DNA from: Emiliania huxleyi CCMP1516
Taxonomy: Eukaryota
Assembly (NCBI RefSeq): GCF_000372725.1
Contig: NW_005201113.1
Span: 1-64,000, forward strand
Direction: 5' to 3'
Length of the DNA stretch: 64,000 nt
Position 1 is the first letter of the stretch; every line of letters starts with the position of its first letter. The notes beneath the pieces are model-generated. The model was given only the letters and a program-made list of their open reading frames with translations. It did no database searches and was not told the DNA's origin. Position numbers and translations under genes: made by a program. Positions 8,833 through 64,000 of the stretch are shown one piece after another.

Positions 8833-10254
8833 ATGGGCAGTGCCTTCTCCACGAGCGCCGCACCAGCTGCTGGCGAGCCGGATCCGGACGAAGGCATTGA
8901 GAAGCTCGCTCGGATGCTAGCCGGGGGCAGGTCGATGACTGTCTTTACAGGTGCAGGCTGCTCAGTCGAGCCACCCTCATCCATCCCCGACTTTCGCTCA
9001 CCGGGCGGCCTCTGGTCTCGATACGACCCGGCGGTGTACTGCGAGTACAACACTTTTGTCGGCCAGCCACATCTCTTCTGGGAGATGGCGACGGAGTTGA
9101 CGCGTGACATCCACGCCATCAACGGAGGCACGCAGGAAGAGCTGCTCGAGACGGGCACCGTCCGGCACGCGCGGCCGAACGCGGCGCACGTCGCCATCGC
9201 CGATCTGGAGAGGCTGGGCTGCGTGACCGCCTGCATCACGCAAAACATTGACGGGCTGCATGGGAAGGCTTGCTTCTTTCCTCCCCCTTTCCCCCTCTCT
9301 CTCCATGTCTCACGCACCCGCTGTGCCGGCTGTGGCCAATCTGTGCCCGCTATGGCCCATCAGGCGGGCTCCTCCTCCGTCATCGAGCTTCACGGGCATC
9401 CGACGTGGACATCCGCCGCCACAGGGAGCCGAATTCGGTAGTTCTCGGGACCGTCCTGTAGGCGGCAGAGCTCGGCGACATGCATGGCGTGCGGCGCCGG
9501 CTGCGAAACCGAGGCCGAGGTCATCCCGCAGTGGGTCGCCTGGCAGCAGGCGCAGGCCGCGGCAGCGGCTTGCGCTCCGATTTCGTGTTTCTCTAGTCGC
9601 GCATGTTCCTGATTGCAACAGGCGCAGGGCGCGGGCGGCTCCTTCGTGCCCACTTGCCACTGCCCTAGATGCACGGTTCCTATTTCCCGACTAGCCTCGC
9701 CACGTATTCAGCCCAATCACTGTCTTCGTAACCTACGAATGCACGCGATCGCTCCGAGGTTTGGTGTGTCCGCAACGCAGGCCCGCAGCCAGGGTGCGAG
9801 GGCGTGCTCAAGCCGGATGTCACGCTATTCGGAGAAGCTCTGCCGACGGGTGCCTACGCTCGCGCGGTGGGGAAAGTGCTGGCGGCGCCCACCCCGACTC
9901 GTCGTACGTGCTTACCAGATTTCGTCCTCTCTCTTGACAGGTTTCTATCTTGTAGGCGCCCATCTGCCTCGTCGTCGGTACGTCGCTAAACGTCTTCCCC
10001 GCGAGCACAGTGCTTGGCTCCGCGAAGAAAAGAGCCCCACGGTTCCCTTGTCGTGGATGGCAAACCCCTTTTCATAGGTCCCTGGCTTCGTGACCAAGCG
10101 GTTCGGCACACTCGCAGTCAATAACCTCGACGGCTCGGGTACCGGCGACGCACACATAGTGCTTCGAGGACCCGCGGGCGACACGATGACCAGGCTCGCG
10201 AGGCGCGTTCGAGAGCTGAAGAGCCTCCCCGCGGCAACGGCAGGGCGGCTCTAG
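8833..10254 (+). CDS. NAD-dependent deacylase, Sir2/sirtuin family (multi-exon)
   Basis: VFTGAGCS..IPDFRSPGGLW, PNAAH, ITQNIDGLH, VIELHG, CxxC, LKPDVTLFGE, VVGTSL spread over exons; stop TAG 10252-10254. Confidence 0.92.
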
Positions 10255-10264
10255 TGTCTACGAG

Positions 10265-10320
10265 GGTAAGGTAAGGTAAGGTAAGGTAAATTTCTCCACA
10301 CACACAAAGTGGTGGGGCAG
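10265..10320 (-). mobile_element. 3' end of a (CCTTA)n-tailed retroposon
   Basis: (GTAAG)n-GTAAATTTCTCCACACAC...GTGGTGGGGCA, the same terminus as at 28451, 33887 and 52041. Confidence 0.7.
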
Positions 10321-10770
10321 TGTAGCCTGATGTCGTTCTCATTGTTGTGACTTGTGTTGCGCTGCCTGGGGTGCCCGCGGTTCGTAATAACCGCCAAAAC
10401 TGCTTCGGTCTCAATCTTCAAAAGAGATGACATGTGAGCCCCGCTGCCTTCACGCAGCTTCACATTCGTCAGATCTCGATGCTTCGTCCCTACGTATTTC
10501 TGTCGTCGCCGAACGTCCGGTCGTCCGTGTATGCGCGCGCGCGCTCTAGCCGCGAACGCGGCCGAACGCGCGCATCTCGACATCGCCTTCCGCGGGGCAT
10601 ATCACAATAAAATACGTAATCACACTCACGGATCCGGACGCCGAGAGCTGCTGATCTTGATTGTGTACTGCACTCTAGAAGAGCAGAGCCCCGACACCCG
10701 AGACTCCCGTCCAAAGCTCGCGATGGCGTATGTGACCTCAACGCAAGCAAAATGTATCAGAACAGAGCCC

Positions 10771-13326
10771 TCACAGCCTTTTGCCAATCACCTCCTCGCC
10801 GTCGCCCACCCGCGTCGACAGGAAGGTGCCCGCAGACAGGTCGAAGGAAGCGTGGTGCGCGGCGCCTGTTCACGTGCAGCGACTTCACAGCTGGATGCGA
10901 GGCATGGCTGTGGTGCCGCGCCGAGCAGATGGTGTCTACGAAGCGTCTAGGAAGTGTCATGAAGAGGCCAGGAAGTGTCGTGGCTGTGTCCGGGGACGTC
11001 GATGAGAGTGTCGACGACGTGTGTCTAGGAAGCGGCGCCCGAAAAGTCGATGTACAGGCACTCCCCCGGAGGGGCGCATGCCGGCAGCCCCTTTGGCCGC
11101 AGCGCGATCCCCCACTTGCCGACACCCCACGGCGTCTTGAGCGCGCCTGCTCGCAGGTCGCGGTGTGAAGGGCCGCTGTCCACAGGCACTGGCGGGTGCA
11201 CCGCGGCGCCGTGGGCGCGCCCGCGGGCAGGAAAGAGAGCGTCTTGATGCCGGCCCACGTCCAGTGCGAGCCAACCACCGCCGAGGCGAGCGCCGACTTT
11301 TGGATCTCGTCGGCCGTCGCGCCCTCGCGCCTCCAGCCAATGGTGCCCATCGCGTTGGTGGCGGGCCACGTGTCGCCCGCCTCGGTGATGGCCTCATTCC
11401 ACGCCGCATGCAGCCACTTTGTGGACGGGTTGGCCTGCTTGGGCGGCGGGTCGAGATTCGGCGGCGGGTAGGCGCCTCCGTAGTGCCTCTTGTCCAGCGA
11501 CCACTCGCCGATGGTGTTGAAGCCCTGGGGAGAGCCGTTGAGCCGGTACTCGATGCCGTACGTGTAGTGGAAGATTTGGTAGCCCTTCTCGAACCCGTCC
11601 TTTGTCCCCGCATACGCATTCGGCTCGATCTGCATGCCCTTGACAGAGTGTCGGATCCCCAAGCTGGCGGCGGCGATCGAGTAGCCCCACATCTCGAGCA
11701 CCCAATCTTGGATCCGGTGCGCCGGCTCGGGGCGCCCTCGCAGAATGTACGAGCAGTTGAGCCACAGAGGGGCCACCTTGCGAAGCAGCTCCTTCTCGAT
11801 GATGAGCGGCGACGGCCCGACGGCCTGCAAGCTCTTAAAGTCGCCCTGCGGCCAGCAGTACTGGATCACCGAATTGTGCCCCGACGATGCATGCATGTAC
11901 CTGTGAGAGGATAGGCGCGGAATCAACCGACAGATGCGACAAGAAGCGCCCTCGACGCACGGCGTGTACCCGAATCCGTGCGCCGCCGCCAGAGGCGGCG
12001 AGTCGGCGGTGGCGTCAGTCGCGAGGTTGGGCATCGGCTTTGTGAGGACGTGGTCCGTCTCGGCCACGAGGACGTACCTGCCGGGAGGGGGGAAGGGGGG
12101 GGGGGGTTCGGGGCTCCGGTGCAATCAAAGGTAACGGAGGATTAGGCATTGTTGTCATTAGGAGAGATTGTGATGCAATCTGTCGTTGTGGCGCACTTCT
12201 CCTTGACGCGGTCTGCGAGGCCGCGCCGGAAGAACTCGACCACCGAGTGGGGCCGATTCAGGACCCCAAAGTGGCCGTACTTGGCCAGCACCTCGGGAGC
12301 GAGGGAGACAGTGAGGGCGTGAGGGAGACGGAGACGGACGCGGAGAGGGAGCGAGGGCGAAGGCGAGGGTGAGGGTGAGGGTCAGTCACTGTCACTGTAT
12401 CAGCGGGGCGCGCCTCGGGCGTGAGCGATGGCACGAACACGGAAGGGATATACGGCGCCGCCGCATCGGGCAGCCCTCCCTCGGACGCGCAGACGCGCCT
12501 AAAAAGAAATCTAACGCGCGGCTCAGGGCAGGCTCCATCCGGCGGTCCTCCTCAGAGGCGCGGGCGCGCGTGAAGCCGGTCATCTCGGTGCACTCTCCGT
12601 CCGCCGCCTAGACGAGAGGCACGCTGAGAATAGAGAACAGAAAGAGCTGGGCACAAGTGCACGGCCCATCAGTCGCCCGCTGCTTCCGCCAGTGATAGTA
12701 CATGATCCGGCTCTGCCAGCCGTTGTAGGTGGTCCCTACAACAGGGAGGGCCCGAGAAGCTTCGGAGGGGCAGGACGGTTCCGAGAAGAGTCAGCCGCTC
12801 ACGTGATGTGGAAACCGCAAGTGCTATGAATCTAGGGGTTCGTGTTCTGGATCTAGGCGCAGCTACCCTGGCCGGTCAGTAGCGTGTGGAAGGGTCGGCG
12901 GGTCTTGGGGCACGCGGGGTTGTCGAGCGAGATCTCGCGGTGCAGCCTGCCGCCCGCACCGCCGCCGCCGCCGCTTCCGCCACCGCTGCTGCCACCGCCA
13001 CCGCCACCGCCGCCGCCACCGCCGCCGCCACCGCCGCCGCCACCGCCGCCGCTGCTGCTGCCGCCGCTGCCGCCGCCGCCGGACGCGGCTGCGGTCGATG
13101 CCGCGCCGGAGGAAGCGGGCTGTGCGGTCGCCGCCTCGGTAGCCGCAGGCGCGGCGGCGGCCGGCACGGCTGCCGTGTCTGCCCTCGCGACTCGGGGTGC
13201 TGCAAGCGAGGTGTCGCCAGGCGACGCTCGCTGCTCAACGCCGAAGAGCGAGCCGCATAGGTTCCACCAGGCAACAAGGGCGAGAAGGTAGACGAGCAAG
13301 CCGAGCAGGCGGTACGACGCACCCAT
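10771..13326 (-). CDS. Hydroxyproline O-arabinosyltransferase (HPAT/GT95)-like type II membrane glycosyltransferase with an extra C-terminal domain (multi-exon)
   Basis: N-terminal TM (LLGLLVYLLALVAWW), Gly stem, PFHTLLT..YNGWQSRIMYYHW, MTGFTR, VLNRP, YVLVAETDH...PMPNLA, GPSP, WVLEMWGYSIAAA, FHYTYG, GEWSLDKRHY; stop TGA 10771-10773. Confidence 0.85.
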
Positions 13327-13699
13327 CAACGGTGGGGCGGCAGCGGCGGCCACGACCGGCAGCGGCGGCGCCAGCCCCAGCAGAGAACTTGAAAGAAGAA
13401 TTTTACGCTGCTGGCACAACACTGGGCGGGATATGCTCGCAGTGGGAGTCAGAAATGTGGTCCTTGCGCGAGGAATGCTCGATAAACTCGAGGGACCAAA
13501 ATACGCGGAGAGGAGAGCGGAGTTACGCAGAAAGGCGAGAGAAGCAGCGAGAGCAAGAGATCGGCAGACGACAGCGGCGTCTCAGAACGAGGCCGAGGAG
13601 AGCGATGAGTCAGGGGAAGAGACAGCAGGAGAGAGAACGACGAGAGTGAGAAGAATGCGAGGTGGCATGAAGGTCGCTGCAAGAATTGGTGATAAACTG

Positions 13700-14657: not shown

Positions 14658-15276
14658 CGCCTCCCCGAGCCTGAAGAGGAGCCGGCGGAGGGGAGGGGCG
14701 AGCCGAGGACGATAGAGAGACCGCGGGTGCGGGCGCGACCCGTCGACCAGGGAGAGTGGGCCCGTCCTCCCTGGGAGGGGAGGCGACACGATCCAATGCC
14801 GCCGTCCTCGCCCGGGAACCCCGGCCGGGCCGTCGACGCTCTCGGAGGCTGCGGTACCAGTCGAAGGCGAAGCGGAGTCGAGGCCACACAGCCGAGGAAG
14901 AGGCATCAGAAACGACTGCAGAGGCAGTCTGGTAACGCCCGGAAGGCGAGCAAGGGAACAGGACGAGCCGAGGGCTCGCCCCGACGGGCGAAGGAAGGGA
15001 CTCTGGGACCGGAGCCGGGCGGGCGCACATGAGGCGTATCCGTGTACGTACGTGGAGGCGTATCCGTGTACGTACGTGCGCCTGCGACAAGACGAGACGA
15101 GAAGCGAACGTCGAGGTTTTTGCTGCCGCGGCCGCGCCGCGACCTCCCGTTTGTTTTGGCGCCGATGCAGCGCCGTCTCTCGCCGCGCGAGATGGCGCCG
15201 CCGCGGCGTCGGCGCCGCGATCAACCGCGCTCCAGCAGCGAGCGGTGCAGAGCGGCTACCGACATGACAGTTGGCA

Positions 15277-15465
15277 GGTAGGTAGGTAGAAAGGTGAAGA
15301 ACAGCCAGGCTCGGACTGGACACCAACGCGGTATGGGTGGACGCCGGACAGATGATGACGACACGCACGAGCGACACACAGACACAAACAAGCTCACAAG
15401 ACACACAGCCAGCGGGCTGCCACACACCCTGAGTTGGCGTACACATAACTCAAGGCCACATCCTC
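15277..15465 (-). mobile_element. SINE-like element with (CTAC)n tail, copy 1
   Basis: (GTAG)n-AAGGTGAAGAACAGCCAGGCTCGGACTGG...; copy at 17388-17580; the same 3' end in the opposite orientation at 14022-14066. Confidence 0.65.
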
Positions 15466-15631
15466 CCTGTCGCCCCCCCCACCCAGCCAGCACTCCAAGG
15501 TGCCAAGAGAACAAACAAGGGCACAACAAACAACAGACGACAGGAAGTAACGTGCTAGGCTAGAGCAGACCGCTCCGCTAACAATCTCGCCGGCCGGCGA
15601 GGCACGGACGAGACCGTGTGTGGGGTCTAGT

Positions 15632-17194
15632 GAGAGAGAGAGAGAGAATTCTTGATACGAAACCACGACGACACACACCAGTCGACTCGCATCGGTTGCC
15701 TCCATGAACGGCGGAGCTATTCTCGCGCCCACACCACACCTGGCTCCAACGTGGACACGCCCATAGCTGGGGACACTACTAGGTCACGCATGGCATCACA
15801 GAAGTTTTATCTCTGGGCCCCGAAAGGCATCTCTAGCAGTGTCGTTACACATGCCCCCTCCCCTCCTGGGCGCATGCGCCTCACGTCTCGCCAGAGCATA
15901 AGCCCTTGGCGTGTGGCGAGACGAGTTTTTCGCCATCGCAGCGAGCAGCAACCCGCCCGCCGCAAACAGCCGGAGGCCTCGCCGCGGCACTGGCTGCGCC
16001 GCGGTCCCGCACCCGTCGACGCAGCTCCCCCCGCGGAAGACCGCGCGTAGCAACGTCTTGACGATCGAGATGAGCGTGCCTGAAGCTCGCCCACCTACTG
16101 CCCCTGAGAGTTGGTTATTGAGTGGGATCAGCTCCCCCCCTTGGGATCGAAGCCGCCACAACCTCACACCCAACATCACAGGCGGGATCAGAAGGGGACT
16201 CCACACCGGACACCGCCCGGGCACAGCCCCCCTACCCGTCGGATCGCACAGAGGGCCCCCTCGGAGCAGCCCACACACAATCACGCATCGGCAGATTGAG
16301 TGCCTGAGTCAGGCAGACAGCACAGACAAGAGGAGAGAGAGGAGAGAGAGAGAGAGAGAGAGGAGAGAGGAGAGGGTGAGGGTGTGAACACACGTGAGGA
16401 GTGGGGGAGGGTGTCTGTGGTGGGTTGTAGTCATACTACGTGGTTAGAACCACGCGCTCCTCAGGAGCTCAAGGTAGAGCTGAGCGTCCAAGACGCCTCG
16501 GTGCCTCCCACCGGCGTGAGACCATCCGGATCTACCCAGTGCGTCCTCCGGACGGGCTGGTCCCCGCGATGGCCCACGGTCCGCCGTCGCCTGGTTGAAC
16601 CCCCTGCCTCCCGGTTGACCCCCCGGTCCCCGTACACGACCATGAAATAAACTCAAAGTCCACCACAGCCACCAGCCTCCACCTCCACCCGCGAGCCGCC
16701 ACCGCTGCCGCCCGCGACGCCGCCCGCCGCGTCAGATAGCCGCGACGCGCGCATCGAGTCGCGTCGGAGAGCCGCACCGCACCAGCAGCAGCATCTGCAC
16801 CACCACCACCACCAGCAGCACCACCACCACCACCAAAGAGAGAAGCGCACCTGCCCGACGCCGCCCGCCTCGTCAGATGCTTGCGACGCGCGCGTCGAGC
16901 CCAGTCGCACAGCCGCGCCGCGCCAGCAGCAGCATCGGCACCAGCAGCAGCACCACCACCACCACCAGCATCAACATAGACAGGCAGTGCAGGCGCAGAG
17001 GCGCTCGCAGAGCGGCGCTCAGCGCCGCGCACGCCACGCCGCGGACCGTCGGACGAGCGCACCGTACGTCGGCGGCGAGCCGCGTCGCCAGCCGTCGCGC
17101 GAGAGAGCGGCGCCGCCGCGTGCGCGCAGCAGCCGCCGCGGCAGAGGCGAGCCGCGGCGACGTCCGCACTAACGGATAACGGTCATTGGCGGTT

Positions 17195-17227
<33 letters not shown>
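15632..17227. mobile_element. 1.6-kb non-autonomous element with (GA)n/(TC)n termini, copy 1
   Basis: Flanked by GGGGTCTAGT at 15622-15631 and 17228-17237; near-identical to 17591-19176. Confidence 0.85.
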
Positions 17228-17229
<2 letters not shown>

Positions 17230-17387
17230 GGTCTAGTGAGGTGTCTATGGACGCCCTCCTCGCAGGCTAGCGGCCTACTACTAGCCCTAACTCGCACTCA
17301 TGGGAGATGTCAGTTCATTGTATGAGTGTATGCAAGCAGAGGCGCGTGTGCTGATTCTAGATCGCACGCCGTGGCCTCGAGAAGACA

Positions 17388-17580
17388 GTAGGTAGGTAGG
17401 TAGGAAGGTGAAGAACAGCCAGGCTCGGACTGGACACCAACGCGGTATGGGTGGACGCTAGACAGATGATGACGACACGCACGAGCGACACACAGACACA
17501 AACAAGCTCACAAGACACACAGCCAGCTGGCTGCCACACACCCTGAGTTGGCGTACACATAACTCAGGGCCACATTCCTC
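17388..17580 (-). mobile_element. SINE-like element with (CTAC)n tail, copy 2
   Basis: Near-identical to 15277-15465. Confidence 0.65.
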
Positions 17581-17590
17581 CTAGAAGACA

Positions 17591-19176
17591 GAGAGAGAGA
17601 GAGAATTCTTGATACGAAACCACGACGACACACACCAGTCGACTCGCATCGGTTGCCTCCATGAACGGCGGAGCTATTCTCGCGCCCACACCACACCTGG
17701 CTCCAACGTGGACACGCCCATAGCTGGGGACACTACTAGGTCACGCATGGCATCACAGAAGTTTTATCTCTGGGCCCCGAAAGGCATCTCTAGCAGTGTC
17801 GTTACACATGCCCCCTCCCCTCCTGGGCGCATGCGCCTCACGTCTCGCCAGAGCATAAGCCCTTGGCGTGTGGCGAGACGAGTTTTTCGCCATCGCAGCG
17901 AGCAGCAAGCCGCCCGCCGCAAACAGCCGGAGGCCTCGCCGCGGCACTGGCTGCGCCGCGGTCCCGCACCCGTCGACGCAGCTCCCCCCGCGGAAGACCG
18001 CGCGTAGCAACGTCTTGACGATCGAGATGAGCGTGCCTGAAGCTCGCCCACCTACTGCCCCTGAGAGTTGGTTATTGAGTGGGATCAGCTCCCCCCCTTG
18101 GGATCGAAGCCGCCACAACCTCACACCCAACATCCCAGGCGGGATCAGAAGGGGACTCCACACCGGACACCGCCCGGGCACAGCCCCCCTACCCGTCGGA
18201 TCGCACAGAGGGCCCCCTCGGAGCAGCCCACACACAATCACGCATCGGCAGATTGAGTGCCTGAGTCAGGCAGACAGCACAGACAAGAGGAGAGAGAGGA
18301 GAGAGAGAGAGAGAGAGAGGAGAGAGGAGAGGGTGAGGGTGTGAACACACGTGAGGAGTGGGGGAGGGTGTCTGTGGTGGGCTGTAGTCCTACTACGTGG
18401 TTACAACCACGCGCCCCTCAGGAGCTTAAGGTAGAGCTGAGCGTCCAAGACGCCTCGGTGCCTCCCACCGGCGTGAAGACCATCCGGATCTATCTGCCGC
18501 GTCCTCCGTACGCAGCAGTCCCCGCGATGGCCCACGGTCCTCCGTCGCCTGGTTGAACCCCCTGCCTCCCGGTTGACCCCCCGGTCCCCGTACACGACCA
18601 TGAAATAAACTCAAAGTCCACCACAGCCTCCAGCCTCCACCTCCACCCGCGAGCCGCCACCGCTGCCGCCCGCGACGCCGCCCGCCGCGTCAAATAGCCG
18701 CGACGCGCGCATCGAGTCGCGTCGGAGAGCCGCGCCGCACCAGCAGCAGCATCTGCACCACCAGCAGCAGCAGCAGCACCACCACCACCACCCGAGAGAG
18801 AAGCGCACCTGCCCGACGCCGCCCGCCGCGTCAGACGCTCGCGACGCGCGCGTCGAGCCCAGTCTCACAGCCGCGCCGCGCCAGCAGCAGCATCGGCACC
18901 AGCAGCAGCAGCACCACCACCACCAGCAGCAACACAGACAGGCAGTGCAGGCGCAGAGGCGCTCGCAGAGCGGCGCTCAGCGCCGCGCACGCCACGCTGC
19001 GGACCGTCGGACGAGCGCACCGTACGTCGGCGGCGAGCCGCGTCGCCAGCCGTCTCGCGAGAGAGCGGCGCCGCCGCGTGCGCGCAGCAGCCGCCGCGGC
19101 AGAGGCGAGCCGCGGCGACGTCCGCACTAACGGATAACGGCCATTGGCGGTTTTCTCTCTCTCTCTCTCTCTCTCT
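17591..19176. mobile_element. 1.6-kb non-autonomous element with (GA)n/(TC)n termini, copy 2
   Basis: Flanked by a different 10-bp duplication, CTAGAAGACA, at 17581-17590 and 19177-19186. Confidence 0.85.
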
Positions 19177-19401
19177 CTAGAAGACACCCCGCCGAGAAAA
19201 GAGAACCCACGAATTCGCCGACTCGACGGCCCCCTCAGGCTGCGACAGGTCGTCCAAGTGATCTCATCCAATTGCACCGCCCCTCCTCCCCTTGTGCTAA
19301 TGTAACACCTCGAAAGTGCCAGCTCCCTCTCACGCCCTCTGCTCGCGGCCTCGCAGGCAGCCGTCTGCGTCTCTGCGTTGTGCAACCCCGCCCGGCCTCT
19401 C

Positions 19402-34040: not shown

Positions 34041-34144
34041 TAGAGGGTTGTCAAACGTTAACTTTGGGCCTCACTCAAAAGTGGCGCACGCGAGCTGCGC
34101 GCTTACGAAGCACGAAAGCTGGCAGCTTTCCAGAGCAGTCAGAA

Positions 34145-51891: not shown

Positions 51892-52041
51892 ACACACACA
51901 CCGCTCACCCACGCGCACCGGGCCTTGCACTTTAAATGCCGTGGGGCTCCTGTCGTTAGACGTGGAGACGCGAGGGTTGCCCCCCCTTGCCCCACCACCT
52001 CGTGTGTGTGGAGAAGTTTACCTTACCTTACCTTACCTTAC
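51892..52041 (+). mobile_element. ~150-bp SINE-like element with (CCTTA)n tail and 11-bp TSD
   Basis: CTTCAGTAAGT at 51881-51891 and 52042-52052. Confidence 0.85.
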
Positions 52042-52556
52042 CTTCAGTAAGTTTTTGTTAAATTTTTGAGAGTGCTGCGGCTCTGGGGGGAGGCGAGGGC
52101 CCTAGGGGGTACCCATGCGGGGGGGAGATGGGGTTTCCCAGCCCGCCGCAGGCGCCGATTTTTTTGGCATTTTTTCTTTTTCGGCTATTTTTTACTTGTT
52201 TCCATGGGAATTCGGCGTACTTGCGGCCATGCTATCACGCCTTGCGACATCCTTTCGGCGCTGCTGACCGTGCCATGCTGCTCAACTGACCGCCTGCATA
52301 GCTCGCGGCCTTAGTCTTCGGCATTCAGTGACGACCTGATCGTACGGCCAGTAGGAAGGTGTCCTTCCAGCGCGTGCACGCTTCTGGCGCAATGCGCGTC
52401 ACCTCGGATTGGCTGCTGGCAATCTCGAGGCTATGCCTACACAGCCTCGCGCGCATGGGCAGTCAAGAGGGATCATGCACCTTCTCAGGACAGCGCCGGT
52501 GCCTCTCTCTTGGACCGGCAAACGTGGTGGTCTCGTGTCACCGATGTGGGACCAGT

Positions 52557-53345: not shown

Positions 53346-55598
53346 TCACCTGCAGCTTCGCACCGCCATGAGCGCGAGGACGGCCAGCTGCTCCTCCTTC
53401 GCCCCGCCATGCGCGCATCCACCTGTCGAGCGAGCGAGAGGAGAGGGAGGCGTCAGGGGGAGGGAGGGGGGGTGGGGGAGGGNNNNNNNNNNNNNNNNNN
53501 NNNNNNNNNNNNNNNNNNNNNNNNNNNNNNNNNNNNNNNNNNNNNNNNNNNNNNNNNNNNNNNNNNNNNNNNNNNNNNNNNNNNNNNNNNNNNNNNNNNN
53601 NNNNNNNNNNNNNNNNNNNNNNNNNNNNNNNNNNNNNNNNNNNNNNNNNNNNNNNNNNNNNNNNNNNNNNNNNNNNNNNNNNNNNNNNNNNNNNNNNNNN
53701 NNNNNNNNNNNNNNNNNNNNNNNNNNNNNNNNNNNNNNNNNNNNNNNNNNNNNNNNNNNNNNNNNNNNNNNNNNNNNNNNNNNNNNNNNNNNNNNNNNNN
53801 NNNNNNNNNNNNNNNNNNNNNNNNNNNNNNNNNNNNNNNNNNNNNNNNNNNNNNNNNNNNNNNNNNNNNNNNNNNNNNNNNNNNNNNNNNNNNNNNNNNN
53901 NNNNNNNNNNNNNNNNNNNNNNNNNNNNNNNNNNNNNNNNNNNNNNNNNNNNNNNNNNNNNNNNNNNNNNNNNNNNNNNNNNNNNNNNNNNNNNNNNNNN
54001 NNNNNNNNNNNNNNNNNNNNNNNNNNNNNNNNNNNNNNNNNNNNNNNNNNNNNNNNNNNNNNNNNNNNNNNNNNNNNNNNNNNNNNNNNNNNNNNNNNNN
54101 NNNNNNNNNNNNNNNNNNNNNNNNNNNNNNNNNNNNNNNNNNNNNNNNNNNNNNNNNNNNNNNNNNNNNNNNNNNNNNNNNNNNNNNNNNNNNNNNNNNN
54201 NNNNNNNNNNNNNNNNNNNNNNNNNNNNNNNNNNNNNNNNNNNNNNNNNNNNNNNNNNNNNNNNNNNNNNNNNNNNNNNNNNNNNNNNNNNNNNNNNNNN
54301 NNNNNNNNNNNNNNNNNNNNNNNNNNNNNNNNNNNNNNNNNNNNNNNNNNNNNNNNNNNNCTCTCGGCTGCCTCTCGGCTGCCTCTCGGCTGCCTCTCGG
54401 CTGCCTCTCGGCTGCCTCTCGGCTGCCTCTCGGCTGCCTCTCGGCTGTGTCTCGGCTGTGTCTCGGCTGCGTCTCGGCTGCGTCTCGGTTGTTCTCCGCT
54501 GTTCTCGGTTGTTCTCGGTTGTCTCTCGGCTTCGGCTGCGGTTCTCGGCTGTCTCTCGGCGCATCCCCCCACCTTGAGGGCGGCGCGAGGCCTCTCTGGC
54601 GGCGTCGACCCTCGCTCGTTCCGCTTGCGCTTCCCGGGCACGTGCGGCGAGCAGGCGAGGTTGAGGCGGACGCAGCGATCGCAGCGCCGCGAGTCTGGGC
54701 GCGGGGAGGGGGTGCGGTCAGGCGTCTCCACACGCACGATCTGGGGGTGGGGGTGATTAGGTCAGGTCAAGTCAGGTCAGGTCAGGTCAGGTGCACTTCT
54801 CCACACATCACGATGTGAACAGGTCGGGCGCCGCGAGGCGCTGGGTAAGCTGTGAACGGCGTCTCTTCACACCTCACGATGTGGTGGGGGAACGGGCAGG
54901 CAGCCCCTCGCGGCACCGCGGCTAAACGGTTGCAGTGGCGGGTCGTGACGGAAGAATTGTCGGGTGGGGTGCGGTGCGGACGACTCCCTGGCGCCTGAGG
55001 AGGAGGAGGAGGAGTCCTGCACGGCGCCGCCGAAGAGGCACTTGACCTTTGCGCGCCGGCACTCGGTGCACGCCGTCTTGACGGGAGGCAGGTCGCTCTC
55101 ACACACAATGTTTAGCTTGACGCACCGCGCGCACGGCCGCTGGTGCGGGCTGCACGCGGCCTTCGCCTTTTGGCAGCCGCGGCAGGCGCGCTTGGTCACA
55201 AAGACGACATCCGCGGGCGCGTGCGAAGACATGACGGGCTGTCCGCGTGCGCTTCTCGCCGGCGCGTCGTGCAGCGCCGGCCCTCCCGGAGGCCTCGCAG
55301 GCGCTGCGGCGGCGTGGGGGACAAGAAGCGGGGCGACGGCGGCGGGCACGGCGGGCGGCAATATGGGCGGCGGCGCGGCGGCCTCGGCCTCGGAGCCCAG
55401 CGGCCCCGGCAATATCGGCGGAGCCAGCACCAGAGGGCCAGCGAAGCCGGGGCGGTGCGAGAGCGGAGCCAACTGCGCGACGTCGTCGGCGACGCGCGGA
55501 GGGGCGGCGGCGGGCGCGGCGGCGGCGGCGGCGGGTGTTGGCGAGGGTTTCTCTTCGACGGGCGTGGCCTCGGGCTCGTGGAGGAGGAGGGGAGCCAT
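53346..55598 (-). CDS. Transcription factor with two Zn(II)2Cys6 clusters; 3' exons uncertain because of the gap
   Basis: ACRGCQKAKAACSPHQRPCARCVKLNIVC, and ACTECRRAKVKC...[intron]...RRCDRCVRLNLAC followed by basic KRKR. Confidence 0.8.
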
Positions 55599-55775: not shown

Positions 55776-56780
55776 CTAAGCGACTCCTGCGAGGGTGGCG
55801 AGGCACTTAGCTCCGTGCACCCGCCCACCCCCGCCACAGGCAAGCTCATTCACGACCTGCTCTGCGATGGCCGTGTGAAGAACGACTGAGATGCGCTGCT
55901 TCTGCAGCCCCAGCCAGCTCTTGGTGGTCCAAGTCACCTCATCGAGGTACTGGGCCCGCGTCAGCTTGTTCTGTAGCACGTCCGCCGCTCTCCGGAGGGA
56001 GGATCTCACGGACCCCCTTTCCGAACCCGCCGAACGATTCGAACAGCAGCAGCTGCACTTCGACGCCCTTGTCTTCCCTGGCGTAGCGATAATCCCCGCC
56101 GTAGGACGGTATGCGGCGGTCGCCGCCCACCACCCTGCCCCCCCTGGTATGCCAGCGCCCAGTCCCTTGCCCTCTCTCGCCCTTGCTCTTCCTCTCCCCC
56201 TCCATGCCGCCCCCCCGGTACCCTTCCCCCTCCCCCCCCCCCTCCTCCTCTCCCCCCCCCTCTCCCTGCCCCCCACCTCCCTCTCCCTCCTCGCAGTAGG
56301 GCCCATGCCCCATGACCATGTTCCGGTAGAATGATTCAGTGTTGCCGAAAGCGACAAAAGCGCCCTTCCGACCGTGCTCCCCGCTGCTGCTGAGGGAACA
56401 GACGACCTTGACGTCTCCGCAATAGTGCGTGCCGTCCTTGCCAATGTTGTCCGCGTCCACGTCGGGTTGTTTGTTGTAACTCTGACCGAGGTGGGCTTTC
56501 GGCTCCATTCGCACAGCGGTGCCCCACGCGGCGCGTAGGGCGAGGATGAGGCGTCGAAGCGTGTACTTGTGTCTGGTGTTGTGGCCCTGCTGCGGTACGT
56601 TGACAGCAGCGTCGCCATACTCGTCGTGGGTCTTCCCATTCCGAGTCTTCTTGCCCGCCGCCGCGGCCTGGCAGGCCACGTCGAGGGGGAGACCCAGGCG
56701 GCGCTGCACCGAAAGACGCATCGCCCAAGTCTCCATTCGCATGTCATCCCGCATTGGGATGGCGTTGAGGAAGGCGCCGG
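55776..56780 (-). mobile_element. 5'-truncated, frameshifted CRE-like non-LTR retrotransposon (RLE endonuclease domain)
   Basis: GAFLNAIP...RRLGLPL...D.YGD...H..RH...EP...QPDV...GDVKV (PD-(D/E)xK)...LFESFGGFG...QRISVVL. Confidence 0.8.
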
Positions 56781-57104
56781 GTTTTCCGTCGGCAAGGGTT
56801 TAGGTTCTAGCGCGTGTGGTATGCCCATCACCGGCGCGAATCGCGGTTGTTTCGCGTTGTTAGCCAGACGAGGTGATGTCGAGCAACAGCCCGCAGTGCA
56901 CACCCGCGCGCGCGAATGCAGGAGCCTCCCTCTATGCACATCCGGGGGGGCAAAGGGTTGGGTTTGTTGGGGGTATGGCGATGCGTGCACACCGAAAAGA
57001 TGCTTCCTAAAACTAAAATGTTTGAAGAAACTTCACAAACATGAGCGCCCGCCATATAAAGGCGCCCGTTGACTCCTCGCGCCCGGTGCTCGCCCCCGGC
57101 ACGA

Positions 57105-59168
57105 ATGCCTCCGTCCGGCGACTCCAGCCCGAGACGCAGCCTCTGGCCGCTGCGCCGAAGGCGGCGCCCGCCGGCGCGCGACGGGCCAGCACCGCAGCGC
57201 TTCTTCCTCCCATCGTTGCAGCTGGACGCCGGCCGCGGCGCCCTCGTCGGTCCCAGCCTCGCCGCCCTGTTTGACATCGGCCCCGAGCTGGGTGCGGGGC
57301 GCACGGCAGTTGTGAACCTCGCGGTGCGAAAGGCGGGCGGCAAAGCGTGGGGTAGGAGCGCCCTCAAGCGCTTCTCCGTGGCGGACCTGGCGGAGCATGA
57401 GGAGGATGCAGAGATGCTCCTCGCCGAGGTGGCCATCCTGTCGGCCGTGCCGCCGCATCCCGGCCTCGTGCGGCTGCTGCAGGTGGCGTGTACGCCGGCA
57501 GCGGTGGCGCTCAATCTCGAGTACATTTGCGGCGGAGACCTCTTCGCCTACATTCTGGAGGCTGGTGGGCTGGACGAGGCCGAGGCGCGGCCGCTCTTCG
57601 CGCAGATTGTGGCCGCGCTCGAGCACCTCCGCGCGCACGGGATCTGCCACCGTGATGTCAAGCCTGAGAACTGCTGCTTCGCCGACCCGATGCGGCGAGT
57701 GATCAAGGTTGTGGACCTTGGCGCCGCCGCATTCATCTCTAGCGCCGGCTTCACCTCTCTCGCCGGAACGCCGCTCTATGCGGCTCCCGAGATCTGTCCG
57801 TGGTACTTTGAGACGGTGCGCTCTGCAGACCGCCGCCCGGTCGACCCGCGGCTCTCCGTCTCCGCCTTCTCCTCGCCCAATAGCTCGCCGCCCGACACAC
57901 CGACGCCACAGCTGAAGCAGCGCAACGACGTCCAGCCGCCCGCTGCCGGCGACGCACCGCGTAGATTCGACGCGCTGGAGAGTCAGACCATACCGGCGCC
58001 GATGCCTCCGACGCCCACGCTCGAGGCCGAGTTTGGGCCTGGGAGCGGCGCGGGGAGCGTGAGCGGCTCTCTGCAGCCGTACGGGGCGGAGGTGGACCTG
58101 TGGGCGTTGGGAGCCACCCTCTACGTCATGCTCTCCGGCGAGCCGCCCTACGACCAATCGCTCGAGGTGAGACGGGACAGGGCGGAGATGAGGCAGGTTG
58201 GGCCCCGACACGTGAGACCGACTCATTCCTCCCTCTCCCCCTCCTTTCCCGTTAGGAGGAGGAGCTCTTGGAGCAGATCTGGGCGACCCCGCCGACAGGC
58301 TTGCGAATGAGAGGCGCAAGGAGAGGAAAGGATCTCCCGCGCCTCACCCTACGTCCTGTCCTCATCAGGCGTGCCAATGTCCTCCGCGGCGTGGCGCGGT
58401 GTCTCGAACGAGGCCATGCGGCTAATCCTGAGCCTCATGTCACGCCGCCCGGAGAGCCGCCCAGCCTACGCTGCGGTTCGGGCGCATCCGTGGTTCGCTC
58501 GCGTTGCTGCTTCAGGCCCCTCGGTCGGCGGCGCAGAAGCGCGCGCGTTGCCCTTTGTCCCTCCTCCGAGGCCGCCGGGTCTAGAGGATGCGACGGCGCC
58601 GCGCGGCTCGACGCCGCCGCCGCAGTCCTCGCTTCTGCCCGCCCCGAGCTTGGCACCGCCCTCGCTGTCTATGCCGGCGCTGCCGCTGGCGCCAACTGTC
58701 AATGACCCCGAGGTCGAGGAGGGGCTCGCGTTTGTATGCACCACGCTCGACCCGAAGAGAGTACACGATTTGGCGGGCGATTTGCAGCTCCTTCTACTCC
58801 CTGAGCCGCACGCCATCGGGAGGGTGCGAGCGGTGACACTGCGCTTCGATGGGAGAGGCGGAGTGACTCCGCTGCCGCACGCCACGCCATCGCCGCTCGC
58901 TGTCACCGCCTGCACTCGCCTCGGTCTCCTGCGCTGGGCTACCGGAGAAGGGCCCTTCACTCCGGCGGCCGACCCGGCGGTCGGTTCCTTGGCGCCGCGC
59001 CTCGTCAGCGCGCTGGCACCGGAGAGGAGGGCGTTTCGAGCGTGGCTAGCAGAGAGACGAGCTGGCGAGAGGGAGTGTGTGGCGCCTGTGGGGCGCAGCC
59101 CGAGGCGCGTACCCTCCTTCGCGAAGCTGCGAGGCCGCGCTGCTAATGGTACTCCACGCGACCACTGA
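57105..59168 (+). CDS. CAMK-like Ser/Thr protein kinase (multi-exon)
   Basis: LGAGRTAVV, ALK, HPGLVRL, LEYICGGDLF, HRDVKPEN, DLG, GTPLYAAPE, DLWALG..LYVMLSGEPPY, RP....HPWF. Confidence 0.92.
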
Positions 59169-59460: not shown

Positions 59461-59513
59461 ACCCCCCCCACACACACACACGCACACACCGACACACACA
59501 CACACACACACAT
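59461..59513. repeat. (CA)n microsatellite
   Basis: Direct observation. Confidence 0.9.
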
Positions 59514-59674: not shown

Positions 59675-62266
59675 TCATGGGGAACGCGGTGCGCCTGCGG
59701 CGGGCCGCACCACCACCCTTGGCAGCACAAAGCTGCGCCAGAGGTCCGCCAGCCCCGGCGCCGCCCCCTCGCCGTCGAAGCGCTCCTCGTCCCAAGCGAT
59801 CAGGTAGCCCAGCCGCATCACCTCGACCGCCCGCTTGCGAGCCGCCTCCGGGAAGAGCTCGTGCGACTGCGGCGACCACTCCGCCGCCTTGAGGATGAGC
59901 CTGCCCACCTCCACCGCCGCGGCCGCTGGCTCCAGGCTGGCCGGCCTGAGGGAGGGCAGAGGCGTGGGGTGTGTCCAAAGAGAGGATCCGGCGAGTGGGG
60001 GAGAGGCCATAGCGCGCCTCATAGCGAGGGCCTTGGCCTCGCCCGCCACGCGCACGCCGAAGCGTCCCGTCGAAGCGCTCGCGAAAACGACGACGCCGAC
60101 CTTGCCATTCATCGACGGCCGCGAGACGAGAGAGTGGATCGCGACGGTGGAGCCGACGGCCGCAGCGGTCGGATCCGACTCGCCCCACGAGCAGAGGACG
60201 CGCGCCCGCTCGAGGGCCGACGGCTCGCCGGCCGAAGAGTCCGCGCCGCCGCGCAGCAGCGCCCGCGCCCGGTCGACGGTGAGCGCCTGCGGGAAGAGGG
60301 ACAGTGAGCGTGAGGATAATGCGCTCACGCTTCTTCAGCCGCTAGTCTCGGGCACGCCTCGAGGTGCTGGAGCGGCGTCCAGCCGCGGCTGGCGACCAGC
60401 CAAGCGGCGAGGTCGGCGTGGCCGCTGCGGCTTGCGGCCTCCTCGGACGTGCCGAGGAGCGTTGCGGCGCGGGAGGCGCCGTAGGAGGAGAGGAGCTGAA
60501 CGACCTCGAGGTGGCCCGCCGCGCACGCCATGCTCAACGGCATGACGCCGTCCTCCTCGGCTTGGTTGACTGCCGCGCCAGCCTCGAGGAGCAGCCGGGC
60601 GAACTTGAGCTGGCCCTGCTGGCACGCCACGAACAGCGGCGTGACGCCATTCTTCTTGGCTTGGCTGACCGCCGCGCTAGCCGCGAGAAGCAGCCGAGCG
60701 ATCTCGAGGTGGCCGTTCTGACACGCCATGAACAGCGGCGTGGCGCCATCCTGCTTGGCTTGGTTGGCCGCCGCGCTGGCCTCGAGGAGCAGCTGGGCGC
60801 ACTCGAGGTGGCCGTTCTGGCACGCGATGAGCAGCGGCGTGGCACCTTGCTCCTCGGCTTGGTCGACCGCTGCGCCAGCAGCGAGAAGCAGCCGGGCGCA
60901 CTCGAGGTGGCCATTGTGGCTCGCGATGAACAGCGGCGTGGCGCCTTGGTTCTGGGCTTGGCCGACCGCCGCGCTGGCCTCGAGGAGCAGCCGGGCGATC
61001 TCGAGGTGGCCGTTAAAGCACGCGATGTACAGCGGCGTGGCGCCGTCCTCTGCGGCTTGGTCGACCACTGCGCCCGCCTCGAGTAGCAGCCGGACGATCT
61101 CGAGGCGGTTGTTCTGGCACGCAGTGTGCAGCGGGGAGACGCGGCCGTCGTTGGTTTGGCCGACCGCCGCGCCAGCCTTGAGGAGCAGCCGGGCGCACTC
61201 GAGGTGGCCCTCCTGGCACGCCATGAGCAGCGGCGTGGCGCCTTGCTCGTCGGCTTGGTCGACCACTGCGCCAGCAACGCACAGCAGACGGACGATCTCG
61301 AGGTGGCCACTCTGGCTCGCGACGCGCAGCGGCGTGAAGCCGTTGTTCGTCGCTTGGTCGATCGCCGCGTTGGCCTCGAGGAGCAGCCGGGCGATCTCGA
61401 GGTGGTTGTTCTGGCACGCGATGTACAGCGGCGTGCCGCCTCGCTTCACGGCTTGCTTGATCGCCGCGCCAGCCTTGAGGAGCAGCCGGACGATCTCGAG
61501 GTGGCCGTTCTGGCACGCCATGAGCAGCGGCGTGGAGCCATCCTTCATGACTTGATCGACCGCCGCGTTGGCCTCGAGGAGCAGCCGGGCGCACTCGAGG
61601 TGGCCGTTCTGGCACGCGATGTACAGCGCGGAGCCGCCGCGGCTGCCAGTCGTCACCCCAACGCTCGCGCCGGCTTCGAGCAGCAGCCGCACCGCCTCGG
61701 CTTGCCCGTGGCGAGCGGCCAAGGTGAGGAGCGTGTCCTGCTTCTCGGTGTCGAGCCGCGCGTCGAGCTGCGCCGTGAGCGACGTGCCGCGCGTCCCCCA
61801 CTCGGACAGGACGGCGCGCAGCGAGCCCAGGTCGCCCACCGCCAGGTCGGCCGGGAGGCTTTGTGATCCCCAGAAAGAAGAATTTTAGTATACAAGCCCC
61901 TCTCACAGCAGACTGGCTCGGACTGGCACTACAAATGGCACAGCAGGCGACGGCCCCTTACGGGTCGTCAAAGAGGCCGGCGTACTCCTCCGGCCGCTCC
62001 TCCCCCTCCCAATCCTCCCCGGGCTCTGGCTCCTCCTCCTTCGCCCGCGCCCTCGCCCCCCGCCGGCGGCGATTCCGTGCGGCCGTCGCCCCCGCCCCCT
62101 CCCCGCCCCCATCACGGCCGGAGCCGTACCACCCAGCGCGCACGAGGAACGAGGACTGAGCCTCAACCTCGTCCAACCTCACCGCCCTCACGGCGGCGTC
62201 GCACGCCTCAGCCCGCGAAGCGCCAGCAGTATGCGCCGCGGCGTACGCCGCGTCGCCGCGGCGCAT
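59675..62266 (-). CDS. Ankyrin-repeat protein (about 13-14 repeats) with a C-terminal domain
   Basis: Repeated G.TPL..AC.NGHLE..RLLL.A.A.VDQA in 60325-61839, further exons to 59675, and a putative first exon at 61955-62266. Confidence 0.88.
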
Positions 62267-62571
62267 ACTGCTGGCGGCCAGAAAGAAGAAAAACGTCCGA
62301 GGAAGTACCCGTGTGGACCGGAGGTAACAGCAGCAGCAGCACCAGCAGCAGCAGGGCGCGCGGGGGGGAGGGGGGGCGGCGGGTGTGATGGACCCGAGAG
62401 CGATTCGCCTTGGCGTTTGTTCTCCCCGAGAGGCAAGAGAAAACCGAGTCATATCTCCCCGAGATCGCAGCCGCGTGATGAGGCAACTTGAAATTTTGCC
62501 GGCAAGGTTAGCTCCCCGGCAAGGTTCAAAATTTTAGCTCCCCGGCAAGGTTAGCTCCGGCCATGTGAGGC

Positions 62572-62980
62572 TTGGGCTGAACACAGTTTTCCGGAAAACA
62601 AAAAGGAAAACAGAGGGTCCCCAGCACTTTGCGTTTCCGGAAATTTCCAGGGAAAACAGAGGGTGTTTGGTGCTCCATTCTGGAAACGTTTCCCTGAGTC
62701 TGAGAGCTGGTCTGGGGCAAAATCTGAGGCAAAATTGAAGAAATCGACAAAATACCCAGGCGGTCGCAGGGTAATTTCCAGGTATACACGGGTTCTCCGC
62801 GAAATTCCCGGCATTTTGCCGCTTTGGCCTAAAATTTGGCTGATTTTGGGCCCAAACAGAGCCAAAAATTTGACGATTTCCACGCAGTTTTCCCGGGAAA
62901 ATAGAGAGGAAAAGAGAGGGTGTTGTAAAAAAGGAAAGGAAAACAGACGGGGTGCGAGAGGCAAACTGTGTTCAGCCCAA
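62572..62980. mobile_element. MITE related internally to 50281-50774 but with a different 18-bp TIR
   Basis: TTGGGCTGAACACAGTTT...AAACTGTGTTCAGCCCAA; shared core cagagggtccccagcactttgcgtttccggaa...tccctgagtctgagagctggtctggggcaaaatctg. Confidence 0.85.
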
Positions 62981-63132
62981 TGTATGAGGCTACCGACTGC
63001 ACTCCAAGCACACCACAACACACATTCAATCACTCGCGAGAGAGGAGCACCCACCGTGGGAATTCGGGCCGAGCCGCTTCAGTGACTGTCGTTTGGTAAC
63101 CACCATCTCTCCTCGCCCTGCAGGGGCTGCCC

Positions 63133-64000
63133 TCAGTACTCGACCCTTGCCCCGGCGTAGTCGAAGAAGGCGCCCGAGTCGGAGGGAGAGAGCCCGTCGA
63201 GGACGTCGAGCATCGAAGCGGTGCTGTACTCCACCGTGAAGAGCTTCTCGGGTCTCACGTTCTTCTGGAAGGGCACACTCAGTCCCGTGTCCTACACGCG
63301 CGCGGGGGGGAGGCGGGGGCGATGAGGTGGTTCAGGGCGGAGCCTCGCAGCCCAGCAGCGAGATGTGTCCGTGCCCACGCCTCAAAGAGCGACCGTGGGC
63401 GGGATGACTGGCGGCGCTCTCTCAGCTCGTGCCGTCGCCACTACTGGCTACTCCGGGCGCACCGCGGTGCCGGGGTGCAGCGAGACCGCGTAGACGTCGC
63501 GTCGCCGCAGCTCGATAGCCATGTTGACAGTCGCCATGTTCAGCGCCGCCTGGTCGCGCTTCTCTTCTCTTCAGTGATGGCATTCCTTCTCTGGCGACGG
63601 GACAGCTGCTCAGCGCCGCCTATTCGCCGAGGTGATGCGCCACGATTCGCCGAGGCTCCGAGCCCCAGGATGACCCATGTCCCGGTGCCGCCTTTGACAT
63701 TCGGTACGACCACCAGCCGCCCAGCCTACGGTGCAGTGTTCCGAGAAGGCTCTTCTGACGAAGACAAGACGGTACGGCCCCAGAATTTAAATGCCGGTTG
63801 TCTCCGATCGAGCCGACGCGCGCAGACAGGTTGGCGACGATCGCGCCTACACGACGCGCGTGCCGTACGGCTCCGGAAAGCGTCCGGAAAGCCGCGCGCA
63901 GCACGGGCTGGCGCCGCCCTTTGCGAGCAGCGGCGCGATCGCCTGCGCCATGAGCACCGGCCCGAGTGCGTTGGTCGCAAAGACGCTCTGCATCGCCGTG
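63133..64000 (-). CDS. CsgA/C-factor-like short-chain dehydrogenase, 3' part (5' end outside the window)
   Basis: FATNALGP, ANLSARVGSIGDNRLGGWWSYRMSKAALNM (YxxxK), SLHPGT.DT.LS.PF, SGAFFDYAG. Confidence 0.92.

Follow-up and report, generated by a model that had tools for sequence, protein, structure and literature searches.

Introners of Aureococcus were reportedly described by Huff et al. in 2016. Introners that co-opt their donor from a 3–9-bp duplication are known from the accessible part of PMC9860276 (2022), whose supplement records 653 elements in five families for Emiliania huxleyi, with a mean length of 37 or 70 and a TSD given as '?' or 'N'. The supplement of a further study names three E. 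huxleyi families, one of them with '10bp terminal direct repeats', the plan 'co-opt 5' carry 3'' and a 2-nt duplication (PMC12130899). The donors of this species are 56–65% GC and about 4% GA, which was ascribed to the GC content of the genome (PMC4028052). We found no report of introners with 20–30-nt duplications in the literature searched, and the accessible text of PMC2784329 and PMC10290126 contains nothing on exon-start copies.

The window analysed here comprises positions 1 to 64,000 of the E. huxleyi CCMP1516 contig NW_005201113.1. Its first-pass annotation had proposed a window-wide rule according to which introns start with a decayed copy of the downstream exon. All intron/exon pairs quoted there were found at the positions given, and comparing intron starts with the next exon against mismatched pairs yielded an identity above the null: bases 3–20 of 14 transcript- or protein-supported introns (contigs of RNA type, runs presumed to be RNA) gave 9.07 of 18 matches, compared to 5.37 for deranged pairs (p = 1e-4). 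These nulls preserve composition, and intron positions 1 and 2 were left out of the score. For the 43 annotated window introns, some of which were positioned by hand after the repeats had been seen, 8.05 of 18 matches were obtained versus 5.37. While the excess identity was clearly demonstrated, the universality of the rule was not, as 18 of the 43 exceeded the 95th percentile of the null (null rate 6.8%) and 25 fell below it. The exon-start copy is thus real, a statistical rather than a universal rule, and extends beyond the window. It is carried about equally by GC introns (8.2/18) and GT introns (7.8/18). The tally excludes the FHA intron ending at 32768, introns at N gaps, the 28.8–29.7 kb and 54.4–55 kb regions and the paralogous copies at 47.9–48.5 kb; four of the 15 listed joints (11511/11673, 11575/11666, 11704/12048 and 12077/12567), which have short sides and no shared letters and are likely paralogue joins, were discarded.

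The sirtuin gene (8833–10255, plus strand) contains six introns (9268–9363, 9396–9461, 9550–9621, 9656–9780, 9885–9955 and 10010–10077) with five GC donors and one GT donor, placed by joints, by protein P0001 matching over five junctions and by an open spliced reading frame; three of them passed the copy threshold. The main X1 contig retains the lead example, 9550–9621, unspliced; this intron has no joint among the joints listed, and its splicing is suggested by protein P0001. The HPAT gene (10770–13326, minus strand) was identified by Pfam HPAT and by P0156, which matches over seven junctions. Joints in three runs presumed to be RNA were obtained for all eight of its introns (12736–12866, 12608–12676, 12499–12569, 12292–12413, 12078–12196, 11901–11969, 11147–11220 and 10866–11038; five GC and three GT donors), and four passed. 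The 74-nt GC-AG intron 11147–11220 consists of a decayed next-exon copy followed by a decayed copy of a 39-nt filler (11147–11185, 29/39 identical), and the joint 11140/11215, which removes the unit whole, was present in runs X1, X4 and X9 (presumed RNA).

The coiled-coil gene carries introns at 20620–20810, 21333–21564, 21643–22067, 22104–22208, 22363–22689 and 22778–22847 (plus strand), the first placed by reading frame and the other five by the spliced-looking homologue P0143. Stacked units make up 21643–22067, the final 71-nt unit opening with a 20/20 exon copy; the 3' end of 22104–22208 carries an upstream-exon copy, and 22778–22847, a 34-nt exact copy plus filler, is missing from P0143. 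In the FHA gene (31216–33600, plus strand), six of seven introns passed (31642–31710, 31900–32151, 32206–32352, 32380–32456, 32818–32897, 33026–33096 and 33276–33378), and 32206–32352 contains three copies. This gene and its introns were placed by Pfam FHA, by the homologue P0121 running over three sites and, for the other introns, by the reading frame. Reading frame likewise placed the SDR introns (63847–63917, 63726–63794, 63550–63691 and 63292–63462, minus strand), two of which passed; 63550–63691 represents two stacked units with different fillers. Among the quoted pairs, those from SDR and from HPAT 11901–11969 are present but individually remain below the null 95th percentile, and at 33276–33378 the repeat exists but lies mostly on the upstream-exon side. 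Twelve introns placed by reading frame within 36416–60357 show no detectable exon copy (36416–36504, 37135–37215, 43043–43110, 44231–44300, 44499–44586, 46689–46762, 47381–47459, 47511–47588, 58167–58255, 58314–58368, 59946–60017 and 60287–60357; 0/12 above threshold), and none of the kinase, ankyrin and 36–47 kb gene introns passed.

A filler of ~39 nt occurs in five window introns of three genes and in 122 metagenome stretches. Its reference copy (31672–31710, plus strand) has 10-nt terminal direct repeats and terminates with the acceptor AG; additional copies lie at 32859–32897, 33058–33096, 54850–54888, the minus-strand 11147–11185 described above, and one ends at 22847. After removal of 17 non-family matches, seven without flanks and 19 merged duplicates, 142 metagenome matches left 99 distinct sites; merging also took out sites with a common 5' part, and a recount gave 141 copies at an identity of at least 29/39. 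An identity of at least 14/20 to the next exon was observed at 68 of the 99 sites, compared to 1.7% of 9,702 mismatched pairs. By gapped alignment 73 of the 99 consist of a ~30-nt next-exon copy (median 30 nt, median identity 0.86) and the filler ending in AG, at a length of 59–78 nt; the local exon copy is absent at 26. Identity rises from 0.34 at position -2 to 0.88 at -1, where the G is duplicated in 62 of 73 sites, reaches 0.93–1.0 at +1 to +6 and falls below 0.5 from +29. Similarity to other introns does not reach both ends, the 5' ~30 nt being site-specific in 73/99; several sites have their 5' part in common with another locus, with whole-unit sharing in few locus pairs only. The element extends over 37–41 nt in 54 of 68 sites, its 5' end being fairly constant, and overlaps the copy by 1–7 nt in 25 of 68. 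Beyond small indels no element copy with another 3' end was found by a scan whose pattern demanded the AG. The inverted match of its ends is imperfect (about 7/9). Of the 45 elements with a confident orientation (28 of the 73 orientations are weak), 42 run in the sense of the coding frame, and at 38 of 39 sites the frame would be broken by retention of the unit. In 61 of 73 sites there is an inner GT 37 nt upstream of the AG; as a general splice site it was rejected, as the resulting 37-nt intron would shift the frame in 45 of the 61. Rfam gave no match, and searches of the viral collection gave zero and one matches, the single one a chance match. Duplication identity shows no correlation with element identity (rho 0.02, p 0.84), which yields no simple age series; the age test was null.

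The plan is not restricted to this element. In a strand-free metagenome repeat scan from which it was excluded, 42 of 113 pairs were of the 5' type (~11 expected) and 11 of the 3' type (~20 expected); 63 of the 113 matched neither type under a strict rule. The 42 fillers comprised 11 arrays, 12 AT-rich sequences and 19 others; 10/11-mer-array and AT-rich fillers follow the same copy-plus-filler plan, and a single gene contains 10-mer arrays in both orientations. The duplication varies from 20 to 35 nt (median 22–30 nt), and the units are ~60–80 nt long. Stacked units were observed at ten of the 73 element sites, eight with the same filler and two with different fillers. At locus L041 one unit is a ~150-nt repeat piece with a 5-mer tail, flanked by ~18-nt repeats.

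The proposal that the donor is former coding sequence was supported. In 51 of 55 metagenome sites (null mean 22.4, maximum 33) and 31 of 43 window introns (null mean 19.1), the donor reads the same as the dinucleotide that opens the next exon. Duplication of an (A)G/GY site, as originally suggested, was not supported: AG precedes the donor in just 17/55 and 16/42 metagenome sites and 18/43 window introns, and similarity is at background from -2 upstream. The copy is one-sided, and the AG is supplied by the filler, outside any duplicated AG/GY site; all 43 window introns begin with G and end in AG. The GC donors would be explained in part, in that donors are copied from coding sequence, but coding composition alone misses their spectrum, with GC:GT:GA at 953:273:403 in coding sequence compared to 35:27:5 (metagenome) and 27:16:0 (window) in donors. 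This difference suggests that the spectrum further required a permissive spliceosome and selection in favour of GT.

Homologues on contigs of 8.6–65 kb pass all eight HPAT sites without gaps, one on a 14.7-kb contig passes three FHA sites, and one on a 142-kb contig passes the sirtuin sites. From the size of their contigs we assume that these are single open reading frames on DNA; those relatives may also have lost the introns. No empty allele or presence-absence polymorphism was found in overlapping loci (about 8 kb) or in a 91%-identical FHA allele, the introns being common to all.

The architecture supports the view that many introns originated by duplication with added filler; insertion with target duplication appears quite probable. 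We lean towards the view that introns built from a 20–30-nt copy of the next exon and a 35–50-nt filler ending in AG stem from staggered-cut insertions, probably by non-LTR target-primed machinery. Such machinery would belong to a non-LTR retrotransposon, use short non-autonomous templates and make a staggered cut at the target, which gap filling would then duplicate. The 5' third of the intron would derive from the first copy, whose opening dinucleotide would serve as the donor, and the acceptor would come from the filler; only those insertions would survive that have a duplication beginning with GT, GC or GA and a total length tolerated by the spliceosome. GC-rich coding DNA supplies far more GC than GT, so that GC donors would come to dominate. 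The copy would decay later, and unequal exchange between copies likely stacks and re-homogenises units. A fixed 3' end, a long variable duplication and the lack of clean inverted ends fit a retro-type enzyme, as does the L041 unit with its 5-mer tail; in the accessible texts, RTE elements show repeat tails, truncation at the 5' end and duplications of 20 bp (PMC2887409), and CRE and R4 elements always duplicate their target (PMC3636483). The near-constant 5' end of the element, unlike random 5' truncation, argues against such an enzyme, and the diverse fillers and oppositely oriented 10-mer arrays argue against a single template. Candidate retrotransposon reading frames in the window gave no Pfam or PDB match and represent an atlas lead only.

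For insertions of this geometry, a mobile element is somewhat favoured over plain repair as the driving agent. Repair without any element, in which a staggered break is filled in, duplicating 20–30 nt, and end joining adds templated or captured DNA, with repeated fillers as favoured templates, is unlikely but would account for the diversity of fillers, AT-rich and unique ones included, and for the overlap of copy and element; new Daphnia introns likewise have 4–12-bp repeats in common with the adjacent exon in the accessible text of PMC4202315. The repeats described here are two to five times as long, however, the near-constant 39-nt filler ends exactly in AG at 99 distinct sites, and random fillers should favour internal AG/GY and two-sided similarity, which is rare. 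Abortive intron loss, by which a break in an old intron leads to brief copying of spliced mRNA or cDNA that overwrites the 5' half and leaves the 3' half, would explain a one-sided copy beginning exactly at the junction, a -1 G that is not always duplicated and a filler with a ready-made acceptor. We consider it rather improbable, as relatives appear intronless at the tested sites and it accounts neither for the spread of one filler to many genes nor for the stacking of units that differ in filler, as at 63550–63691.

The imperfect inverted ends, the fairly fixed element length and the 'carry 3', co-opt 5'' plan described for DNA-type introners (accessible part of PMC9860276) recall a MITE-like DNA transposon of the kind known from algal introners, here with a target duplication of unusual length; yet the duplications described there measure 3–9 bp, most fillers lack inverted ends and the sense bias is strong, which makes this origin very unlikely. 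Slippage, unequal exchange or gene conversion might instead create or refresh the copy in introns of other origin. Stacking, mostly with the same filler, the uncoupling of identity from element age and locus L007, whose exon agrees with the intron copy at places where that of allele L109 differs, point in this direction, but exchange requires a prior repeat and sets neither the left edge at the splice junction nor the ~30-nt length, and we regard it as highly improbable. Chance from GC-rich composition or splice consensus, or an assembly artefact, is scarcely credible, even though the window has ~65% GC, a perfect 78-nt tandem at 32224–32382 could be such an artefact and some introns were set by hand with the repeats in view. 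The composition-preserving nulls rule out chance for the tested sets, the RNA-defined set being significant alone; k-mer artefacts were rejected, as copies are imperfect and independent assemblies show the same sites again, with point differences between them.

The birth of introns is a long-standing question, for which exon-start copying offers a concrete, testable origin, with donors copied from coding sequence. Copied donors would help to explain the GC-donor majority of E. huxleyi, so far ascribed only to genome GC content. The published introner method for this species, as given in the accessible text, requires similarity at both intron ends and would thus overlook introns whose 5' third is site-specific, a blind spot of searches of this kind, and some catalogued 37-nt introns might be mis-set gene models. 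The rule is simple enough to correct gene models in this group, and a genome-wide test is possible with existing genomes and RNA. It is conceivable, if somewhat doubtful, that most Emiliania/Gephyrocapsa introns derive from one still-active process that duplicates 20–30 nt of exon and adds an acceptor-bearing repeat, and that it flooded the genome with coding-derived donors, drove the spliceosome to near-consensus-free GC/GA donors and escapes introner surveys.

Compared with known systems, the Daphnia pulex introns attributed to staggered breaks (accessible text of PMC4202315) also combine filler with a direct repeat of the adjacent exon at the new intron's opposite end, but their repeats measure 4–12 bp in 33 cases, whereas those here have 20–35 nt, lie nearly always 5' and adjoin fillers of recurring families. 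Tandem genomic duplication of an AGGT exon segment (PMC3443670) also makes an intron from duplicated coding sequence. It needs AG/GT inside the duplicate and no filler, whereas here filler is always present, the acceptor is foreign and upstream similarity is at background; AG before the donor is confined to a minority of sites, and two-sided similarity is rare. As in introners, near-identical sequence, the 39-nt filler, lies in introns of unrelated genes, and the unit is spliced out, as seen at 11147–11220 and 22778–22847. Known introners, as far as the accessible sources describe them, share a repeated element carrying the acceptor, a GT, GC or GA donor from duplicated host sequence and an unchanged mRNA, but their duplications of 3–9 bp contrast with 20–35 nt here, a third to half of the intron, and with many unrelated fillers on one plan; the clear terminal inverted repeats and fixed 3–9-bp duplication of MITE/DNA-transposon introners are lacking. 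The E. huxleyi families, compared by description only, resemble the ~39-nt filler in lengths, GT/GC donors and 10-bp terminal direct repeats, although no long duplication is on record for them in the accessible parts of PMC9860276 and PMC12130899. Non-LTR retrotransposons (RTE, PMC2887409; CRE/R4, PMC3636483; accessible texts) differ from the non-coding fillers of 35–50 nt, but resemble the present units in their long target duplications, fixed 3' ends and short-repeat tails, and a long variable duplication with a fixed 3' end, as expected from TPRT, is what was observed here.

To examine the first-pass proposal that introns start with a decayed copy of the downstream exon, splice evidence for positions 8500-13690 was taken from contigs of three runs of three studies, which are presumed to be RNA. 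G..AG introns were obtained from 11 of the 15 joints among those listed, and the other four were left out of the intron set. Three further sirtuin introns were based on contig pieces and the protein P0001, which matched the spliced sirtuin protein across five junctions. After splicing, both the sirtuin gene and the HPAT gene yielded a complete ORF. The HPAT exon had its best named matches in Prymnesium parvum (52%) and Diacronema lutheri (49%), which identifies the DNA as haptophyte. In the resulting 14 introns, picked without reference to repeats, positions 3-20 had on average 9.07 of 18 bases in common with the next exon, compared to 5.37 for deranged pairs (p = 1e-4), so that the likeness is above a shuffled control. 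No likeness was detected between their 3' ends and the upstream exon (5.5 versus 4.9, p = 0.13). The sirtuin intron 9550-9621, the leading example of the proposal, was kept unspliced in the main contig of run X1, which retains two sirtuin introns (9461-9883); intron 9656-9780 was partially retained in runs X4 and X9, in agreement with the pervasive retention already published.

Addition of eight homology-supported and 21 frame-only introns to a total of 43 gave 8.05 versus 5.37 matches over the same positions, with 18 of 43 exceeding the 95th percentile of the null (null rate 6.8%). Since part of the added introns were placed once repeats had been noticed, the 14 introns represent the clean test. 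The likeness is frequent but not a window-wide rule, as the exon copy was absent in this test from twelve introns between 36 and 60 kb. This region includes paralogous gene segments with introns in common (36200-37600 and 47690-48990), a tandem exon-plus-intron duplication with a period of 129 (47357-47613) and a gene for a long cysteine-rich predicted protein (42100-46760, minus strand), with GC below its neighbours and four annotated introns, none with an exon copy. The sole clear mirror case was 22104-22208, where the intron ends in ~28 nt copied from the upstream exon and the GT donor comes from the filler.

Five window introns in three genes end in the same ~39-nt filler (31672-31710). 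A search of 15 of the 64 parts of a metagenome collection returned 122 stretches (~530 estimated); of 142 filler matches, 125 were retained by element features alone; flanking sequence was present for 118 of these, which represent 99 distinct sites. The first 20 nt of the next exon were repeated 55-95 nt upstream at 14 or more of 20 positions in 68 of the 99 sites, compared to 1.7% of 9,702 mismatched site pairs, and gapped alignment identified the copy in 73. These 73 units measured 59-78 nt in total, with medians of 30 nt for the length and 86% for the identity of the 5' part. By position, identity was 0.34 at -2 and 0.88 at -1, reached 0.93-1.0 over +1 to +6 and lay under 0.5 starting at +29. 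In a codon model fitted to 3,711 codons from the window, 45 sites gave a confident orientation (28 of the 73 were weak), and 42 of these had the element sense to the coding frame; leaving the unit unspliced broke the frame in 38 of 39. The whole unit at 11147-11220 in HPAT, a decayed element member, was spliced in all three runs. At 61 of the 73 sites, an inner GT occurs 37 nt ahead of the AG; a 37-nt intron starting there was rejected as the general splice, as it would shift the frame in 45 of the 61. One window copy (54771-54888) is antisense to a zinc-finger-like gene and adjoins a hybrid of the element end and a tailed repeat family, which may hint at a common origin.

The plan is not restricted to this filler. 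A strand-free repeat search in 102 metagenome element loci (210 kb) found 176 repeat pairs, 113 of them without the element. Among these, 42 consisted of a 5'-end copy plus a filler ending in YAG (~11 expected from displaced windows), 11 showed the reverse arrangement (~20 expected), and 63 matched neither under the search rule, many of them, judged by eye, because their first bases have decayed. The 42 pairs, some of which will be chance pairs, have putative copies of median 21.5 nt, units of median 72 nt, predicted donors GC (27), GT (8) and GA (7), and apparent fillers of 10/11-mer arrays (11), AT-rich (12) or other sequence (19). In locus L068, the unit ending at 1832 is filled with telomere-type-like repeats. 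The exon-copy plan at intron starts is real and widespread.

Donors at the 73 element sites were GC (35), GT (27), GA (5) and other (6). When the copy start was placed using positions from +4 on, donor and first two exon bases were identical in 51 of 55 sites (null mean 22.4, maximum 33). This agrees with the idea that GC donors are former coding sequence, but relative to coding DNA (GC:GT:GA = 953:273:403) GT is over-represented and GA under-represented, so that coding supply, selection and a tolerant spliceosome would all be needed. GA donors are predicted to have been made by duplication in loci L013, L042, L088, L104 and L120. GC and GT introns carried the copy alike. Duplication of an (A)G|GY site is not supported: AG directly precedes the donor in a minority of cases (17/55 element sites, 16/42 other-filler pairs, 18/43 window introns), indicating that the acceptor comes with the filler.

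An origin of the introns through insertion is likely. HPAT homologues (contigs of 8.6-65 kb) align without gaps over all eight intron sites, P0121 (14.7-kb contig) is continuous across three FHA intron sites, and P0023 (142-kb contig) spans the sirtuin sites, five of six gapless; we assume that these homologues are single ORFs on DNA. Intron loss in the homologue lineages is the alternative to gain here. No empty allele was found in ~8 kb of overlapping metagenome loci, and L093, an FHA allele at 91% identity, has its introns in common with the window. Whole units were common to unrelated loci in few pairs (L028/L040, L043/L072, L054/L075). Stacked units occur at 10 of 73 element sites, two with a different filler, and in the window at 21643-22067, 32206-32352 and 63550-63691. 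Secondary homogenisation between intron start and exon start is a rival to duplication at insertion; exon and intron copy match in L007 at places where its allele L109 shows no such match. The prediction that young introns keep better copies failed with element identity as age proxy, since copy and element identity were uncoupled (rho 0.02).

Insertion at a staggered cut, then gap filling, would be the simplest account of the unit geometry, and we infer that it lies behind these introns. A DNA transposon as source of the units is one rival; the 3' end is fixed and the duplication long and variable, which favours target-primed reverse transcription instead. A simple version of retro-insertion is disfavoured by the diversity of fillers and by the fairly constant 5' element end. 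Element-free repair, as the origin of copy and filler, or overwriting of old introns from mRNA are further explanations. A repeat family with a 5-mer tandem tail occurs at 10262-10319, 28449-28535, 33886-34042 and 51890-52045, with no clear target duplication at these four copies; in L041 (1313-1464), a ~150-nt piece of it forms one intron-like unit between ~18-nt direct repeats. Two related broken ORFs (3-340 and 55779-56799, minus strand; 73% nt) presumably resemble the C-terminal zinc-knuckle/endonuclease part of an RLE-type non-LTR retrotransposon. They had no match in Pfam or PDB, and in the atlas gave a weak zf-RVT lead with unnamed eukaryotic clusters as neighbours. A ~2-kb LTR-like direct repeat (15270-19200) adjoins an assembly gap. 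According to the available parts of the respective papers, RTE elements produce 20-bp duplications and carry repeat tails (PMC2887409), and CRE/R4 elements duplicate their target in every case (PMC3636483).

The available text of PMC4028052 reports for E. huxleyi 56-65% GC donors, ~4% GA donors, AG acceptors and reads running through 89% of introns; GC content (~65%), donor spectrum and intron retention of the window, which also has short introns and 10-mer arrays, agree with these figures. There, the GC donors are put down to genome GC content; copied donors are a plausible account of this oddity. Emiliania is unmentioned in the accessible main texts of the introner surveys PMC9860276 and PMC12130899, whose method, as described there, requires likeness at both intron ends. 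Among the entries listed in the supplement of the former are 653 E. huxleyi elements (mean lengths 37 and 70), with the duplication entered as '?' or 'N', and the accessible supplement of the latter holds at least three families, of which one has a 2-nt duplication and is annotated with '10bp terminal direct repeats'. By these lengths and terminal repeats, compared by description alone, the 39-nt filler is probably already catalogued, minus its long duplication. No exon-copy intron plan in haptophytes was described in the literature searched, mostly outside subscription papers such as Read et al. 2013. As far as the consulted portions of these sources go, introners that carry the 3' site and co-opt a 5' site from the duplication have 3-9-bp duplications (PMC9860276; reviewed in PMC11282704), repeats at Daphnia intron gains measure 4-12 bp (PMC4202315), repeats of 4-30 bp lie near 213 introns of every kind in a general survey (PMC11782384), and the AGGT duplication model (PMC3443670) is unlike the plan found here. 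The exon-copy introns of E. huxleyi probably represent a new form of duplication-assisted intron gain.
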